Assembly (NCBI RefSeq): GCF_988242995.1
Contig: NZ_OZ547045.1
Direction: 5' to 3' (one strand)
Source of the DNA: a plasmid
Length of the DNA stretch: 33,568 nt
How positions within the stretch are numbered: position 1 is the first letter of the stretch; each line of letters opens with the position of its first letter. Positions 399 to 13,036 of the stretch are shown here, in pieces. The notes under the pieces are model-generated. The model saw nothing but the letters and a program-made list of their open reading frames with translations, made no database searches and was not told the DNA's origin. Position numbers and translations under genes: made by a program.

Positions 399-1282
399 GA
401 TTTATCCCCCTCATCTTTTTTTACGCGCTTAACGTCTGGTGACGTAGTGCCGGTATTGATCGCCCCAAGATTTGGGTTGTAATTCATATTCAGGACGCCG
501 ACGACTTTATTCCCGTAACGAACACGCCATTCTTTAGCTACCGTTTCAGCAACAACAACGTTGTTATATTCACCGGCAGGGTGCTGATTAGGGGTATGCT
601 CTTTGCCATCAGCGCCAATATAAAACACAACGGGTAAATCTGCGTTTGCAGGGAATTTAAAATAGGTGAAACGGAAATTATCCCAGACGTTTACCGGGGC
701 CAAAGACCGCGATTCATCCTCATCGGACATTTTATAAAGCAGGTTGTAAGGCCCATTCTGAAGGTCTTTTAACGCCTTTTTCACGCGGTTGCTTTCCAGC
801 GTTTTATTTGCTTTTTTCATATCCTCAAACGGATAGAGATAAGTAAGCTGGAGAGTGGCATTTTTCATGCTCCACGGGGTTTTGATAAAGTTGGCTTTAA
901 CATTACCCTGGGCGTCTGTCGTGGTGTAGTCACCTACATAGTGCAGCACGATGTTATAAGTGCGCTTATTTGTGACCAGCACAAGGTTGGTGTCGCTGGG
1001 TACTTCCCCCTTCGGTTTGATGAACATGTTATTTTCTACATGGGTAAACGCATAACTATTGCTGTCACCAAAAGCATGTGTCACATAGCTTTCATCAGGC
1101 GCAACCACTATATGAGTGGCAACACCGGCAACGGAATCAATGCGCACCACATCAACCGGGTTATACACCACAGATTTAATCCGGTAGTCATATGGGCTAC
1201 CTTTCCCCACTTCCAGCGCCAGCGCCTGACCAGAAAGGCCAAGACTGACCAGAATTAAACCGGCAATTAATTGTTTTTTCAT
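395..1282 (-). CDS. virB9: VirB9-family T4SS outer-membrane core protein
   Basis: 295-aa ORF with a signal peptide (MKKQLIAGLILVSLGLSGQALA). It sits between virB8 and virB10 with overlapping or adjacent stops and starts. Confidence 0.9.
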   Translation of the reverse strand: MKKQLIAGLILVSLGLSGQALALEVGKGSPYDYRIKSVVYNPVDVVRIDSVAGVATHIVVAPDESYVTHAFGDSNSYAFTHVENNMFIKPKGEVPSDTNLVLVTNKRTYNIVLHYVGDYTTTDAQGNVKANFIKTPWSMKNATLQLTYLYPFEDMKKANKTLESNRVKKALKDLQNGPYNLLYKMSDEDESRSLAPVNVWDNFRFTYFKFPANADLPVVFYIGADGKEHTPNQHPAGEYNNVVVAETVAKEWRVRYGNKVVGVLNMNYNPNLGAINTGTTSPDVKRVKKDEGDKS

Positions 1283-1284
1283 GA

Positions 1285-2007
1285 TCAGCCCCCCACAGCG
1301 CCAACGTTCTCAGCGTTCTTACGGTAACTCGTTACACGGAAGCCAAGCGGATTGATATAGCGCTGCTGCGCGGTCATTGGTAACGCTTTGTACTCATATG
1401 CAATCGTGGCAATCCAGTAGCGCGGAGGCTCAGGGTTTGGACGCTGGCGAATGCGCTGCTGCGTGGTGAAGCGAACGGTGGCAACGCCGTGTTCGCGGTC
1501 GGTTATGACAGAGTTGATATGAACGGTCGTCCTTTCCGTGTCGCCCAACCGCTTATCAATGCGGTTAGCGCCTTTGAACATGGAAAGATATTCATCTGCT
1601 ACATCACCGGCAGCCATCAGGCTCATTGCGTCATAATCAACCTGAATGCTGTTGTAGTCGTAGGACTCGCGGTGAATAACAAATTGTGAGATCCAGTATT
1701 GGTCTATCACATCGCCATAAGTGGCCTCATCGCGGGTAATTTTTACCTGCGATACTTCGCCAGTGTCTTTGTTAATCGTTGTGAGGTATGCCGGTAACGG
1801 CTGCGCAAAACGGATAATTACTCCGACCGCAGTAACCATGCTCACAACTGCAAAGACGAAAAAGGCCGTGGCAATCTTCCAGGCGCGTGAACGTGAATTA
1901 AGGATCTCATTAACCATATCGCGCTCAAGCCCTTGAGTTTCCTCATGGTACTTATTCAGCTCATCCCGCGATATTGCCTGATTTTTGTTTTTCTTAAACA
2001 TTGTCAC
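1285..2007 (-). CDS. virB8: VirB8-family T4SS inner-membrane protein
   Basis: 240 aa with an N-terminal cytoplasmic segment, one TM helix (WKIATAFFVFAVVSMVTAVGVII) and a periplasmic domain. Synteny supports the call. The start is GTG at 2007 or ATG at 2001. Confidence 0.88.
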   Translation of the reverse strand: MTMFKKNKNQAISRDELNKYHEETQGLERDMVNEILNSRSRAWKIATAFFVFAVVSMVTAVGVIIRFAQPLPAYLTTINKDTGEVSQVKITRDEATYGDVIDQYWISQFVIHRESYDYNSIQVDYDAMSLMAAGDVADEYLSMFKGANRIDKRLGDTERTTVHINSVITDREHGVATVRFTTQQRIRQRPNPEPPRYWIATIAYEYKALPMTAQQRYINPLGFRVTSYRKNAENVGAVGG

Positions 2008-2174
2008 TCTCCGTTATTAGCGGCATCTGCACGATACAGCTCTGCGGGATACGTCTTGTTAACATCAACCAGCTTTCTCATGTTGGGTTCTGGCGGCGGC
2101 TTCGGGCTACTGGAACATGCGGCTAACATCAACCCGATAAGGGCCATTGCCGTGTATTTGAAGAAATGCACCAT
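2004..2174 (-). CDS. virB7: VirB7-like small lipoprotein
   Basis: A start at 2174 (MVHFFKYTAMALIGLMLAAC...) is preceded by a GGGAG SD. The protein has a lipobox (LAAC) and a Pro-rich segment. Its position between virB6 and virB8 fits. The ORF-track start at 2219 lacks start signals. Confidence 0.7.
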   Translation of the reverse strand: MVHFFKYTAMALIGLMLAACSSSPKPPPEPNMRKLVDVNKTYPAELYRADAANNGE

Positions 2175-2269
2175 CTTTGTCACTCCCTTTGAGTCAGTCA
2201 CAAAAAAATAATAAGTCATCGAAATTACAATTTCAATGACTTATTAGAAATTTATTTCTACATCGTTTT

Positions 2270-3310
2270 TTAGCGCCGTGAACCCTTTGCGAAACCCTGC
2301 ATTTGAGAGGTCGCAGCGGAGGCCGCACCTGCGCCGGGGCCACCGGCAGCGGTAGCCGCCGCAGTCTTAGCACCAGAGCCGCCACCGGCACCCGCAGAGC
2401 CTTTTTGACCACCATCGCGGAGAGCGCCACCCCCACGGCTACCACCACCACCGTTGTTAGGAACCAGCTCCTGAATGCCCGCAGAAACACCATCCCCCCA
2501 ACGAGCGGCAATTTCAGGTACTCGCTGAAGGATCAGGTAAGAGACAATCATTATCAGCAGACACGCGAACACCGGCCCTAACAGGCTGGTATCAGCCCCG
2601 GAAGCGGTGACGGCATCGAGTGCCTTTTGATAGAACTTAATCATCAAGCCAAACAGCATCGACAGCAGGATTGTAACCAAGCCATAGTTAATCAACGAGC
2701 CAAGCCATTTATTGAACATGCCATGCAGCGGCTTGAATAACAGGCAGAAAATAAAGACAGGCCCAAAGCACACAGTGATTGCCAACAGTAACTTCGCCAT
2801 CAATATCAGCCCGGCCCCGATACCACAGATCAGCACCGTGGAGATAATGACGGCACAAGCCAGGAACAAAGACGCCAACCCGGAACCGCTATAAATATCG
2901 GCGTTATCAAATGCAGTACGTGCAACCTGCATCCCGTCATGAATAGCCTTGTCAATGTTGTTACCCATTGCATCTTCAGTGCCACCAGTCGAACCGTTAA
3001 TAACCAGCACCGAGGAAAACTCATCGGGGATCTTCATGGCCGCATCAGCCAGTTGGGTTTGATACAGCCCGCCCGCACTGGCAAAGCTGATTATCATCGA
3101 CCACACAATGAATTTTTTTATCAACGATGAGAGCGGATCACCATGTGGACGCGCTAATGTAAAAAGCCCGTCCAGGGTTAGTTTGCAAATCAACGCTAAC
3201 CCGATTACCGGTGAAATGGTGGATATAACAATTCCAAGATTAGAGGCCACAAATTCCTTTGTGACCGTATCCATGTAATTGAAAAGATCCGTTGTAAATG
3301 AAAAGGCCAT
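2270..3310 (-). CDS. virB6: VirB6/TrbL-family polytopic T4SS membrane protein with a Gly/Ala-rich C-terminal tail
   Basis: 346 aa with multiple TM helices. The last ~60 aa are GGGGSRGGGALRDGGQKGSAGAGGGSGAKTAAATAAGGPGAGAAS. Synteny supports the call. Confidence 0.88.
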   Translation of the reverse strand: MAFSFTTDLFNYMDTVTKEFVASNLGIVISTISPVIGLALICKLTLDGLFTLARPHGDPLSSLIKKFIVWSMIISFASAGGLYQTQLADAAMKIPDEFSSVLVINGSTGGTEDAMGNNIDKAIHDGMQVARTAFDNADIYSGSGLASLFLACAVIISTVLICGIGAGLILMAKLLLAITVCFGPVFIFCLLFKPLHGMFNKWLGSLINYGLVTILLSMLFGLMIKFYQKALDAVTASGADTSLLGPVFACLLIMIVSYLILQRVPEIAARWGDGVSAGIQELVPNNGGGGSRGGGALRDGGQKGSAGAGGGSGAKTAAATAAGGPGAGAASAATSQMQGFAKGSRR

Positions 3311-3330
3311 GCTTTCCCCCTACGCCCTGT

Positions 3331-3567
3331 TCAGGGCGTGACTTTTGGCAATGAAAGGCCATCGTCATTTTTGCCAAACACTTTTAAATCTTTCTCTGCC
3401 TCCATCGCGTTCTGACAATCTGGCTTCACTTTGAGCGCCGCATCATCACGGCACTTTTCCACCATTGCTTTACGCTCTTTATCGTGCTCCTTGTACCAGG
3501 AAACAGGATGCTCAGAGTCGCAACCGGCCAGCAGGAAAAGAGCTAAAGGTAAAATCAGTTTTTTCAT
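3331..3567 (-). CDS. eex: Small lipoprotein at the entry-exclusion (Eex) position between virB5 and virB6
   Basis: 78 aa with a lipobox (LLAGC). It occupies the same position as eex in pKM101-type operons, as I recall them. Confidence 0.6.
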   Translation of the reverse strand: MKKLILPLALFLLAGCDSEHPVSWYKEHDKERKAMVEKCRDDAALKVKPDCQNAMEAEKDLKVFGKNDDGLSLPKVTP

Positions 3568-10071: not shown

Positions 10072-10725
10072 ATGGACATACTTTCTCTTTTCCCGTCTAA
10101 CCTCATCGCATTATGGGCCGTCTCATTCGGTTTTCTGGCCGTCCTGTATTGGTGGAAAGTCACCGGCAGAAAACGCAGACACAAGCGCAAACAGCAACAG
10201 GCCCGGCGTGTACTCGCAAAAATTCAGACTCTACCGGGGTTCGGCTACAAGATCGCGTATCTCAGAAAGATAGACCCTTTCACCTTTGAAGAATTATTAC
10301 TGGAGGGGTTTGAATCGCATGGCTTCAGAACTATCAGAAACAAGCGCTATACCGGCGATGGAGGCATTGACGGCCAGGTAATCATTGGAAAGGATCGCTA
10401 TCTCATCCAGGCCAAACGCTATGGCGGTCATATCGCTTTACAGCACGTTCAGGAGTTCGATAAGTTGCTTAAACGTCATAATTGTCGCGGTCTGTTTTGC
10501 CATACCGGAAAAACCGGCGCAGGTTCAAAATCAGTTAGCCTTGCCAGTGATCGGATGGAGATTATCAGCGGCCAGCGCCTTATTGATTTACTCACGCCCG
10601 GCAGCTCCTTCACCATCGCAACCGCACCGCAGACAATGATGAGGCGTACCGCAGCAACGCGAGGAACGAACACCATTGTCGAGGAAGCGGATAAAGAAAC
10701 AACCAACAGCATGAGAGTTAATTAA
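10072..10725 (+). CDS. Membrane-anchored Mrr_cat (PD-(D/E)xK restriction-endonuclease-like) protein
   Basis: 217 aa with an N-terminal TM helix and a basic stretch. FTFEELLLEGFESHGF...YTGDGGIDGQVIIGKDRYLIQAKRYGGHI matches the Mrr catalytic-domain pattern (D...Q-x-K). Confidence 0.75.
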   Translation: MDILSLFPSNLIALWAVSFGFLAVLYWWKVTGRKRRHKRKQQQARRVLAKIQTLPGFGYKIAYLRKIDPFTFEELLLEGFESHGFRTIRNKRYTGDGGIDGQVIIGKDRYLIQAKRYGGHIALQHVQEFDKLLKRHNCRGLFCHTGKTGAGSKSVSLASDRMEIISGQRLIDLLTPGSSFTIATAPQTMMRRTAATRGTNTIVEEADKETTNSMRVN

Positions 10726-11127
10726 ATGAAGTCTGTAACTATAGAAGCTAAAGCGTTTGCTGAAATGTTGGGAATAACAGAGGGTGAGTTAGTTATTGCT
10801 ATCAAGACAACTGGAAAATTTAAAAACAAGACTATTCCACAGCCTCATACTCCCCATAAATCGAAGAACAGATTTTTATATTCTGACGTGGTGAAGTTTA
10901 TGGAATCAATAAAGCAAAAAGAAAATCTACATAAAAGTTACTTGATGCGTTTTCGTCGGTGCAGGTCATTAGATACTCTTGAAAAGGTATTTGAAAGTTT
11001 GCGCGAAAAGTTAACGGGTAACGAACTGGACGCAATGATGAGCGCGTCAGACCATCGCAGAGCCGAAATTGCTCACAATACTTTATGGGATAAAGTCCCG
11101 GCATCTGCATGGAGAAATGTAAAATAA
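10726..11127 (+). CDS. Hypothetical protein, possible N-terminal HTH; start abuts the nuclease stop
   Basis: 133 aa. The ATG follows the TAA of the upstream gene directly (TAAATG). FAEMLGITEGELVIAI is HTH-like. A terminator follows. Confidence 0.55.
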   Translation: MKSVTIEAKAFAEMLGITEGELVIAIKTTGKFKNKTIPQPHTPHKSKNRFLYSDVVKFMESIKQKENLHKSYLMRFRRCRSLDTLEKVFESLREKLTGNELDAMMSASDHRRAEIAHNTLWDKVPASAWRNVK

Positions 11128-11132
11128 ACAAG

Positions 11133-11155
11133 GCCCGGCACCGGGCTTTGTTTTT
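11133..11155. terminator. Bidirectional rho-independent terminator
   Basis: GCCCGG-CA-CCGGGC is flanked by A-rich and T-rich runs. It lies between two convergent genes (ends at 11127 and 11159). Confidence 0.75.
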
Positions 11156-11158
11156 AGT

Positions 11159-11485
11159 CTATCCAATCAGCACTTTTATTTTAGCCCTAACCTCAGCTAA
11201 TACGACAGGAGGCACTTTTCCCTTTTTAACCGCGCCACGTTCCCGCCAATCAAGGCTTTTCACCTGGTCAGCCAGTACAGCGCTCCCCTCCCCGCTCATA
11301 ACCTCAAACGGATAACCTTTTATTTTTGTTGTCATAGGGCAGCACAGCAACAACCCTATTCTGCCGTTATATACCGCAGGGCTTAACACTAAGGCTGGTC
11401 TATGCCCCGCTTGTTCATGCCCTGCTTGCGGATTAAAATCCATCCATACAATATCACCGGCATCAGGAATATAGTCATTCGCCAT
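11159..11485 (-). CDS. mazF: MazF/ChpB-family endoribonuclease toxin
   Basis: 108 aa. YIPDAGDIVWMDFNPQAGHEQAGHRPALVLSP...KGYPFEV...LADQVKSLDWRERGA...IKVLIG is closely colinear with E. coli MazF. Confidence 0.92.
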   Translation of the reverse strand: MANDYIPDAGDIVWMDFNPQAGHEQAGHRPALVLSPAVYNGRIGLLLCCPMTTKIKGYPFEVMSGEGSAVLADQVKSLDWRERGAVKKGKVPPVVLAEVRAKIKVLIG

Positions 11486-11753
11486 TTTCTAACTTCTTCC
11501 TTCTATAGCCAACCCAGATAAACGTCAAAATGATAACGCCGCAAAGAATAAACATCAGTGCAACTGGAGTTGTATCGAGCACAGAAATAACTTGCTTACC
11601 ACCCTGATCGTCTAATGAAAAAGATTTATCATTAAACAACCTGTCTATACCCAACCATATTGAGTAAACGGCAATCCAAACCCATGCAACCTTACCGGCT
11701 ATATCCAGTAAAGCCACCACTCTTTTAAATATTTTTTTCATTGCAGGAGACAT
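11475..11753 (-). CDS. Two-TM membrane protein inserted between mazE and mazF
   Basis: 92-aa ORF with a GAGGTG SD inside the mazE 3' end. Its start lies 1 nt after the mazE stop. Its stop overlaps the mazF start by 11 nt. Confidence 0.65.
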   Translation of the reverse strand: MSPAMKKIFKRVVALLDIAGKVAWVWIAVYSIWLGIDRLFNDKSFSLDDQGGKQVISVLDTTPVALMFILCGVIILTFIWVGYRRKKLENGE

Positions 11754-11754
11754 A

Positions 11755-12000
11755 TTACAACACCTCTTTTCCTACTGGTGCGCCGAAAGAAATTTCCTCA
11801 TGAATATTCTCGTTAGTAACACAGGCCATCAAAGCATCCAGTGAATATTCCTTCGTTTTAACCGGCACAATAGTAATTTTCCCGTCCTCAACAGACAGCT
11901 CCACTACATCATTCACGCTTAAAGAAGCCTCCCGGATAATCGAAGAAGGGAGACGAACGGACGGGCTGTTACCCCATTTTTTAATAGTTACTTGAGTCAT
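11755..12000 (-). CDS. mazE: MazE/AbrB-fold antitoxin
   Basis: 81 aa. KKWGNSPSVRLPSSII...DGKITIVPV...NENIHEEISFGAPVGKEV is colinear with E. coli MazE. Confidence 0.9.
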   Translation of the reverse strand: MTQVTIKKWGNSPSVRLPSSIIREASLSVNDVVELSVEDGKITIVPVKTKEYSLDALMACVTNENIHEEISFGAPVGKEVL

Positions 12001-12030
12001 TACGCACCTCAGTTAAAAGCAGTTAGCCGG

Positions 12031-12237
12031 TTATCGGCTATTTAAGATGTACCAGGTTTCTTTAGCTTTAAAGAAAGCCCATACCCACGCCAGAGCTGAA
12101 GCTATACACAACGCCGTCATATTGACGAAGTTTCCCGGCGTGTATTCAGGGCCATGTAAAACAAGACCCGCCAGAGAAGCCAGGCTAATGACTATGAAAA
12201 TCAGTCCAAACATGATGTGAAAAATAAGCCAAAACAC
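12031..12237 (-). CDS. Two-TM small membrane protein, first gene of the mazE operon
   Basis: 68 aa with a GTG start preceded by GGAGGTG. It lies 30 nt upstream of mazE and downstream of the paired palindromes. Confidence 0.6.
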   Translation of the reverse strand: MFWLIFHIMFGLIFIVISLASLAGLVLHGPEYTPGNFVNMTALCIASALAWVWAFFKAKETWYILNSR

Positions 12238-12249
12238 TCACCACCTCCC

Positions 12250-12313
12250 GTATCAACCTTGTTGATACATTAACGCTACACTCTGTAGATTGACGTGTCA
12301 ACATTGTTGATAC
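12250..12313. promoter_or_regulatory. Two related palindromic operators upstream of the orf68-mazE-orf92-mazF operon
   Basis: GTATCAAC-CTT-GTTGATAC (12250..12268) and GTGTCAAC-ATT-GTTGATAC (12295..12313). The second contains a minus-strand TTGACA. Confidence 0.6.
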
Positions 12314-12337
12314 AGGTAGTGTCTCATAAACGATGAG

Positions 12338-12442
12338 TTTTGTTACACCGCTCCCGACCTATCCAAAAGCATCAAAATGTATGTTGCCAGTGTAACAAAA
12401 CTCGTTACAATAGTATGTGTAACAAAAACGGTGTAACAAAAA
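12338..12442. promoter_or_regulatory. res-like repeat cluster upstream of the serine recombinase
   Basis: GTGTAACAAAA occurs as a direct repeat at 12390, 12417 and 12431 and inverted at 12338..12348. There is also a TGTAAC-N7-GTTACA dyad at 12391..12409. Confidence 0.6.
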
Positions 12443-12451
12443 GCAGGACAT

Positions 12452-13036
12452 ATGAAGATAGGCTACGCCAGAAAGTCAACTAAAGAGCAAGACACATCGC
12501 TTGAGTACCAGATTGAGGCTTTACAAAAAGCCGGGTGCGAAAAGTGGTATGCGGAGCAGGTATCGAGAAGCGGTAGTAAACGGCTTAAAGCAGGTACACC
12601 AGAGTTAGAAAATTGCATCAAAGCGCTTCGCCCTGGTGACACGCTGGTTGTGTGGGCGCTAGATCGGTTGGGCGGGACTCTATTACAGCTTTTGCAGCTT
12701 ATGAATGAGCTACGCAACAAAGGCATTCATTTTGAAAGTATTAAAGAACATATCGACACACAAAGTCCAATGGGTGAAATGTACTATTCGCTCATAGCTA
12801 TTTTTTCCAATTTCGAGGTAGCCAGAAACCACGAAAGGACAATGGCCGGGCTTGCGGCTGCAAAGAAGAAAGGGCGCATTGGTGGCAGAAAACCAAAGCT
12901 ATCACCACAAGACATAAAAGAAATTAACGCGCTTGTTAAATCGCCAGAAGTTACGGTAAAAGAGATCGCGGCTCGTTTTAACGTGTCACGGCCAACGATT
13001 TACAGACACATTACCCCCGATAGTAATACTGATTAA
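12452..13036 (+). CDS. Small serine recombinase (resolvase/invertase family), probable multimer resolvase
   Basis: 194 aa. It has the catalytic N-terminus MKIGYARKSTKEQ, then LVVWALDRLG, GRIGGRKPKL and a C-terminal HTH (VSRPTIYRHI). Confidence 0.9.
   Translation: MKIGYARKSTKEQDTSLEYQIEALQKAGCEKWYAEQVSRSGSKRLKAGTPELENCIKALRPGDTLVVWALDRLGGTLLQLLQLMNELRNKGIHFESIKEHIDTQSPMGEMYYSLIAIFSNFEVARNHERTMAGLAAAKKKGRIGGRKPKLSPQDIKEINALVKSPEVTVKEIAARFNVSRPTIYRHITPDSNTD

Follow-up and report, generated by a model that had tools for sequence, protein, structure and literature searches.

A predicted membrane-protein gene held between mazE and mazF in an IncN-type plasmid lineage

What is a gene for a small membrane protein doing between an antitoxin gene and its toxin gene? 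The question is raised by the mazEF locus of a plasmid (NCBI RefSeq assembly GCF_988242995.1, contig NZ_OZ547045.1), analysed here as a stretch of 33,568 nucleotides (nt) that we refer to as the window. On its minus strand, mazE (11755..12000), which encodes an antitoxin of 81 amino acids (aa) with an AbrB/SpoVT-type fold (PF04014, E=1.2e-11), and mazF (11159..11485), which encodes a 108-aa endoribonuclease toxin (PF02452, E=4e-25), are parted by a 279-bp gene for a 92-aa protein with two hydrophobic stretches. This conserved middle cistron, open reading frame (ORF) 92 (11475..11753, minus strand), is hereafter called X. Its start codon lies 1 nt past the mazE stop codon and is preceded by GAGGTG 7 nt upstream, and its 3' end overlaps the mazF ATG by 11 nt. 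A further small gene on the same strand, ORF68 (12031..12237; 68 aa), with a GTG start, GGAGGT 5 nt upstream and likewise two hydrophobic stretches, forms an optional first cistron. An initial annotation of this DNA had described these four genes, with two palindromes at the promoter, as a single operon, and the coordinates and features it gave for the genes and for both palindromes were verified. As in E. coli mazEF (chpA), pemIK of R100 and kis/kid of R1, the antitoxin gene comes first and palindromic, putative operators lie at the promoter; unlike in those systems, a gene for a membrane protein of 76-98 aa always stands between mazE and mazF, which are adjacent neither here nor in any related locus.

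Comparison of the operon across about 24 related loci indicated that X is no accident of sequence. The frames of X and ORF68 are intact in plasmids of ~82% nucleotide identity that differ at most synonymous sites, as well as in more distant plasmids, and across the related loci X retains its frame, its length and its two-helix pattern at 31-52% identity. In deep comparisons, omega values obtained by the NG86 method were 0.15-0.32 for X and 0.14-0.16 for ORF68, and mostly 0.03-0.11 for mazE, mazF and hha. The uncorrected ratio of nonsynonymous to synonymous differences (pN/pS), which is conservative where synonymous sites are saturated, was 0.32-0.67 for X, with an upper 95% bootstrap bound below 1 in 10/10 pairs, and 0.21-0.42 for ORF68, with upper bounds below 1 in all informative pairs. 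By these measures X is under purifying selection and is a real gene, and the view of the initial annotation that X is not a chance insertion gains further weight from a Shine-Dalgarno sequence of its own in every lineage and a stop codon that overlaps the mazF start. The contrary reading would hold that both small ORFs are untranslated chance ORFs and that the real unit is mazE and mazF with a long spacer between them, as might be suspected from the lack of a database family match for either ORF and from the fact that ORF68 is left unannotated in most related records. However, frame, length, Shine-Dalgarno sequence and purifying selection are kept across lineages with synonymous divergence above 1, and ORF68 aligns over its full length to an annotated 72-aa protein of IncL/M plasmids. 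Because both small ORFs are conserved, we consider this reading so improbable as to be excluded.

The evolutionary rate of X is 4-5 times that of MazE or MazF (31-52% versus 78-91% identity). Between two of the related loci, denoted L097 and L099, X differs at 16/85 residues with both nonsynonymous (dN) and synonymous (dS) divergence raised, while MazF is identical, suggesting that X alleles have been exchanged between plasmids. Positive selection on X was considered and rejected, since no pairwise omega exceeds 1 and the joint rise of dN and dS in close pairs is more like allele exchange.

The distribution of X is narrow. Only five clusters emerged when 1.84 billion representative proteins were searched with a profile of X, among them the divergent full-length clusters P0014 and P0016 (31-50% identity to X), which again lie in the order mazE-X-mazF at loci flanked by repA and a resolvase gene on one side and hha on the other; clusters P0013 and P0015 come from contigs so short that the genes around X cannot be read. 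By tblastn against PLSDB, X was found in 114 records and MazF at at least 80% identity in 115, and 8/8 metagenome contigs with X have mazE-X-mazF, with an overlap of the X stop and the mazF start according to the tblastn coordinates. Wherever context is readable, X lies between mazE and mazF, which answers the question, posed with the initial annotation, of whether it is conserved next to mazEF elsewhere. Outside this group the arrangement is different. Among the 80 closest MazF relatives from species-representative genomes (63-72% identity), mazE abuts mazF in 79, and the single exception is a locus cut by a contig end, giving 79/79 informative cases, in keeping with the earlier statement that adjacency is the canonical mazEF norm. 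Beyond the clade, the plasmids that come closest, from Serratia (79% identity) and Yersinia (70%), likewise carry two-gene mazEF loci. Small ORFs beside these two loci were considered as a displaced X or ORF68 and were rejected, as they are soluble and their sequences bear no resemblance to either. Because the closest relatives are all two-gene loci, the splitting of mazE and mazF is a derived trait fixed in one plasmid lineage. As far as these collections reach, X is an orphan family confined to the mazE-X-mazF operon of that lineage.

The junction between X and mazF suggests one consequence of this arrangement. X and mazF overlap by 4, 8 or 11 nt in 9/9 aligned lineages, and the spacing between mazE and X runs from 1 to 550 nt. 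In all nine lineages X has a Shine-Dalgarno sequence with a duplex energy of -5.6 to -11.4 kcal/mol, equal to that of mazE or stronger. The corresponding value for mazF is -2.9 kcal/mol in 4/9 lineages and -5.6 to -5.8 kcal/mol in the other five; the median at canonical two-gene loci is -6.1 kcal/mol. In two-gene relatives the mazF Shine-Dalgarno sequence lies within the last mazE codons (for example ...AAGGAAGTCTGGTAATG), and in the window and in locus L007 this same mazE 3' site now directly precedes the X start codon. Judged by these alignments, the mazE-proximal site at which mazF translation starts in two-gene relatives now serves X instead. As the overlap of X and mazF is invariant and four of the nine lineages have a weak mazF ribosome-binding site or none, MazF synthesis is probably coupled to translation of X.

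These observations could be accommodated if X mattered in cis only, as an ORF, possibly arisen de novo from a T-rich spacer, that stays open to relay ribosomes from mazE to mazF, thereby fixing the toxin dose, and whose peptide is functionless. The invariant stop/start overlap and the weak mazF Shine-Dalgarno sequence in 4/9 lineages would fit such a relay, as would the lower GC content of X (0.38, versus 0.43 for mazE and 0.48 for mazF), its fast evolution and the lack of a homologue anywhere. The same reading is strained by the protein itself: pN/pS of X is significantly below 1 in each of the ten pairwise comparisons, and the two-helix pattern, the charge distribution and a near-invariant helix-2 motif outlast saturating synonymous divergence, which selection merely against stop codons would not preserve. 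We thus regard a purely cis-acting X as unlikely.

If the X protein is selected, what kind of protein is it? X and ORF68 each contain two hydrophobic stretches of membrane-spanning length with Kyte-Doolittle maxima of 1.7-2.7, and an AlphaFold2 model of X is a helical hairpin with helices at residues 3-40 and 61-89 (mean predicted local distance difference test score, pLDDT, 72). Hydropathy, charge distribution and the modelled hairpin together predict that X is an inner-membrane protein with both ends in the cytoplasm. In this predicted topology ~10 residues would be exposed to the cytoplasm at each end, and the C-terminus is basic (RRKKLENGE). X retains an acidic residue early in helix 1, and where helix 2 begins it has a segment, SLLDTTPVAIMFIFCGVII, that hardly varies; in a ten-sequence alignment, the LLDTTP motif before the second helix and the second helix itself are strongly conserved, with C71 and G72 invariant. 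Searches of Pfam, NCBIfam, PADLOC and PHROGs with X, ORF68 and the optional operon genes ORF180, ORF104 and ORF145 yielded nothing significant (best PHROGs match of X, E=0.016). A Foldseek search of the PDB with the X model retrieved only generic helical hairpins, all with E>1, a tblastn search of 50,697 phage records found no match to X, and an Rfam search of positions 10900-12600 with E up to 1 found nothing.

MqsR/MqsA, which controls GhoT/GhoS, offers a precedent for the coupling of an RNase toxin system to a small two-helix membrane protein; GhoT is encoded in a separate operon and has its own antitoxin. X resembles GhoT, type I membrane toxins and class II holins in its small size, its hairpin and its basic C-terminus, a likeness that amounts to a functional analogy only. 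By hydropathy and the AlphaFold2 model X has the small size, two helices and charged C-terminus that characterize class II holins and type I toxins; it has neither homology to their families nor a lysis-cassette or antisense-RNA context. No similarity to described membrane-toxin or holin families was detectable in Pfam, PHROGs, the phage tblastn search or the PDB Foldseek search, and no endolysin lies near the locus.

Tripartite type II systems are known, including TAC (HigB-HigA with a SecB-like chaperone), PaaR2-PaaA2-ParE2, omega-epsilon-zeta, PasABC and HipBST. In these the third protein is a soluble chaperone, regulator or split toxin or antitoxin whose gene lies outside the antitoxin-toxin pair. 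The mazE-X-mazF operon is like them in having three genes around a canonical toxin-antitoxin pair and unlike them in that the extra protein is a predicted membrane hairpin with almost no soluble part, encoded between the pair; searches of Pfam, NCBIfam and PADLOC revealed no homology of X or ORF68 to known third components (SecB-like chaperone, regulator or PasC). The locus could still be a genuine tripartite toxin-antitoxin system in which X serves either as a second, membrane-damaging effector upon derepression or as a membrane sensor or anchor controlling MazE stability or MazF activity; in essence this is the proposal of the initial annotation, narrowed to X. Consistent with it, X is found only in the mazE-X-mazF operon and is kept in every lineage, in contrast to the accessory genes that come and go; the extent to which it reaches into mazF is constrained throughout, and its conserved second helix with LLDTTP, C71 and G72 suggests a specific interaction within the membrane; its small size, two helices, predicted cytoplasmic ends and basic C-terminus are holin-like and type-I-toxin-like. 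Other points weigh against it. MazE and MazF are complete without an extra domain and are 70-79% identical to their two-gene relatives, X offers only its short cytoplasmic ends, it evolves far faster than its putative partners (the L097 and L099 alleles that accompany an identical MazF being an example), no cognate antitoxin accompanies it, and ORF68 is lacking from some lineages. Nor is there depletion of ACA, the cleavage site of E. coli MazF, in the operon genes that would spare the X mRNA. We consider a tripartite system the main alternative, though a rather unlikely one. In the same vein, the idea of a MazF-resistant mRNA was rejected, as X and ORF68 carry 2 and 4 ACA sites, respectively, not fewer than codon shuffles.

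The toxin and antitoxin themselves look ordinary. MazF scores 88.5 bits against PF02452 (cut-off 23.1) and 170 bits against the NCBIfam MazF equivalog NF007386 (cut-off 120), and aligns over its full length to the E. coli MazF structure 3nfc (E=8e-39). In E. coli MazF, E24, R29 and T52 are catalytic and substrate-binding residues, and the alignment to 3nfc places their equivalents at matching positions in the HEQAGHRP and PMTT motifs. MazE scores 44.7 bits against PF04014 (cut-off 24.7), and its residues 4-80, including the C-terminal toxin-binding tail, align to the E. coli MazE structures 1mvf and 1ub4 (E=9e-17); against the NCBIfam MazE equivalog it reaches 64.9 with a cut-off of 113, making it a family member but not a strict equivalog. 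MazE and MazF are thus complete and should act like their E. coli counterparts, with MazF functioning as an RNase that MazE neutralizes. Because both are complete and canonical, and X has only short cytoplasmic ends and evolves fast, a direct partnership of X with MazE or MazF is possible but not favoured.

One further locus bears on MazE and MazF. L097 (pAVS0247-B, 1253-3523) is a recombinant operon in which ORF68 and mazE are like those of L003 (two amino-acid differences in MazE), and ORF180, X, mazF and ORF145 resemble the L099 lineage, with a MazF identical to that of L099. Because this operon joins an L003-like mazE with the mazF of L099, MazE and MazF of different sublineages are evidently compatible.

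The explanation we favour, as a tentative one, is that MazEF works canonically, that translation of X gates MazF and that the X protein has its own role at the membrane. The locus would be an addiction or defence module of an IncN-type plasmid, in which a canonical mazEF has turned into the three-cistron mazE-X-mazF. A single promoter would drive the operon under autorepression by MazE/MazF at two GTATC-N9-GAYAC sites, and a terminator after mazF would end the transcript. Most ribosomes that translate mazF would have terminated on X and then re-initiated, and translation of X would gate and limit MazF synthesis, holding MazF below MazE. At the membrane X would have a task of its own (exclusion, phage resistance and host interaction are examples) rather than bind MazE or MazF directly; it would use a tightly autoregulated promoter, and its position inside the toxin-antitoxin pair would protect it from loss. 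Several points weigh against this explanation. Transcription, translation, membrane insertion and coupling are all inferred from sequence; X is exclusive to the operon, as a true third component would be, and the passengers ORF68 and ORF180 also occur outside it; the mazF Shine-Dalgarno sequence is still of moderate strength in 5/9 lineages, so coupling need not be obligatory; and none of the collections searched with X (Pfam, NCBIfam, PADLOC, PHROGs, phage records by tblastn, the PDB by Foldseek) yielded a homologue whose function is known.

The regulatory region upstream of the operon is well preserved. Palindrome 1 (12295..12313), read as GTATCAACAATGTTGACAC on the minus strand, has one mismatch to the pattern and is a putative MazE/MazF operator; palindrome 2 (12250..12268, minus strand), GTATCAACAAGGTTGATAC, matches perfectly and is a putative second operator, situated between the -10 hexamer and the first Shine-Dalgarno sequence. 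No third match to the pattern occurs in the whole window, where shuffles lead one to expect 0, and both palindromes share the conserved core GTATC-N9-GAYAC. Palindrome 1 is near-identical in 8/9 aligned lineages (GTATCAACAATGTTGACAC, with one centre base different in L007) and reads GTGTCAACATTGTTGACAC in L100; in palindrome 2 the outer half-sites GTATC...GATAC are kept in all lineages and the centre is variable. The promoter is likewise kept in every lineage, with the -35 hexamer TTGACA (12301..12296, minus strand) inside palindrome 1, a -10 hexamer 17 nt on, and then palindrome 2, so that the palindromes overlap the -35 and +1 regions. In the window the putative -10 is TAGCGT (12273..12278, minus strand), and the same position in relatives reads TACACT, TACATT, CATACT or TATATT; a simple promoter scan does not call TAGCGT because only 3/6 of its positions match, and we infer its role from its place in the sequence. 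This layout, with the -35 inside one conserved palindrome and the other just past the -10, fits the autoregulation that the initial annotation had expected from the palindromes, presumably an autorepression by MazE/MazF binding to both sites.

Downstream, a good predicted intrinsic terminator (11123..11146, minus strand), GCCCGGTGCCGGGC followed by a T-rich tail, lies 3' of mazF and before a convergent hha-like gene. A weak hairpin across the ORF68 stop codon (12024..12040, minus strand), with a 6-bp stem and a poor T tract, is probably not a functional terminator. It was also considered as an attenuator between ORF68 and mazE and rejected, as the stem is weak and unconserved and the intergenic sequence differs in L002-L004.

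The composition of the operon around its core varies. With optional genes in parentheses, the scheme is (ORF93) (ORF68) mazE (ORF180) X mazF (ORF145 or ORF104), and in some lineages up to three further membrane-protein genes are joined to the operon. The optional genes encode two or three hydrophobic helices each, are mutually unrelated and have no family assignment. The four-gene operon of the initial annotation is thus present in the window, but it is one variant among several, the invariant core being mazE-X-mazF. ORF68 in particular did not hold up as a fixed member: L007 and L009, which diverge most, lack it and have the promoter and palindromes directly before mazE, and in L099 and L100 it is replaced by the unrelated 93-aa three-helix ORF93, with ORF93 and ORF68 both present in L109. 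The closest relative of ORF68 is WP_004187411.1 (72 aa) of pOXA-48-type IncL/M plasmids, with which it aligns over its full length at 56-58% identity, sharing a Met-Phe start, two hydrophobic helices and the loop HxxEYTxGxFxNMTxLCI. This family, found by tblastn and missed by a word-index protein search, occurs on ~1,030 IncL/M plasmid records outside any mazEF operon. There the conserved operon that contains it encodes a 395-aa RelB/DinJ-domain protein, a helix-turn-helix regulator and proteins of 227 and 69 aa, and no mazEF; pemIK lies ~2 kb from the ORF68-family gene on the opposite strand. By its distribution ORF68 is an optional, portable passenger and not part of the operon core.

Individual loci illustrate the traffic of these genes. 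An example of the IncL/M family is found at L101 3001-3219 on plasmid pRIVM_C018873_1, and in a human-gut metagenome contig (L106 1014-1212) ORF68 is split into three frames, as a pseudogene or through an assembly error. ORF180 has a remote counterpart, 26% identical over 164 aa, at L103 2953-3522 on pO157_Sal of E. coli Xuzhou21, directly after an SprT-like gene on a MOBP/MPF_T plasmid, with no toxin-antitoxin gene nearby. Remnants are also seen within the operon: the first 25 codons of ORF180 are left in the mazE-X spacer of L004 (pSCU-115-2, 2708-2780), and the first 17 codons of ORF145 stand after mazF in metagenome contigs L110 (1372-1422) and L111 (2094-2144). Such remnants of ORF180 and ORF145 show that accessory membrane genes have been lost repeatedly while X was kept.

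A bolder account would join these features. X would be an orphan, possibly born de novo where mazE meets mazF, that makes this MazEF the first type II system with an obligatory membrane component between antitoxin and toxin, serving as a second, membrane-acting effector or as a membrane-level trigger or sensor that responds, for instance, to pilus-dependent phage entry or to conjugation; the allelic mosaicism of X would reflect diversifying selection, and the repeated recruitment of at least four further unrelated small membrane-protein families would be functional rather than incidental. We find this combination doubtful.

The window is essentially a complete conjugative plasmid of 33.6 kb. 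Its 1,361-bp operon region (11100-12460) matches E. coli S931B plasmid unnamed3 (33,507 bp) at 100% identity and Salmonella plasmid pCFSAN004085, typed by MOB-suite as IncN, MOBF, MPF_T, at 99.2%. Plasmids of ~34 kb at ~82% nucleotide identity are called "IncN3-type" in the literature, and p53083_KPC contains such a segment (PMC8333104). The locus is present in 55/5,426 complete E. coli genomes, plasmid-borne every time, and on >110 PLSDB plasmids from Klebsiella, Escherichia, Salmonella and Citrobacter hosts, part of which carry KPC. It is flanked by divergent resolvase and repA genes on one side and by the convergent hha-like gene on the other; like plasmid-borne addiction modules of the MazF family, it thus sits beside replication and multimer-resolution genes.

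The neighbourhood of the operon contains further elements. Between the mazEF promoter and the divergent resolvase gene, at 12335-12442 and close to the resolvase start, GTGTAACAAAA occurs four times, in three direct copies and an inverted one. These repeats are probably a res site or resolvase operator of the multimer-resolution system rather than a mazEF element. The gene convergent with mazF across the same terminator (10726-11127, plus strand) encodes a 133-aa protein whose Hha domain is confined to residues 74-130, behind an N-terminal extension of ~70 aa; some relatives annotate only an Hha protein of 60-78 aa. Next to it (10072-10725, plus strand) is a gene for an Mrr_cat restriction-endonuclease-like protein (PF04471, E=3e-21), in which an N-terminal hydrophobic segment is followed by a highly basic stretch (RKRRHKRKQQQARR), a layout that suggests a membrane-anchored nuclease.

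According to a large comparative survey of 2009, type II systems that include a membrane component were not known (PMC2701414). Papers on IncN plasmids name mazE and mazF without comment on their arrangement, and in the full-text literature searched (IncN plasmids, mazEF and pOXA-48) we found no description of a split mazE-X-mazF, although one may exist beyond it. Toxin-antitoxin modules are treated as two-gene soluble units, and detection pipelines take adjacency as a rule; here, throughout a lineage of clinically relevant conjugative resistance plasmids, the gene for a predicted membrane protein is retained in the space between mazE and mazF. If X merely relays ribosomes, the locus would be a clear natural case of an inserted cistron setting the dose of a toxin, and if X acts with MazEF, RNA cleavage would be linked to the membrane. 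The locus also suggests that passenger genes can secure their inheritance by their position inside an addiction operon.

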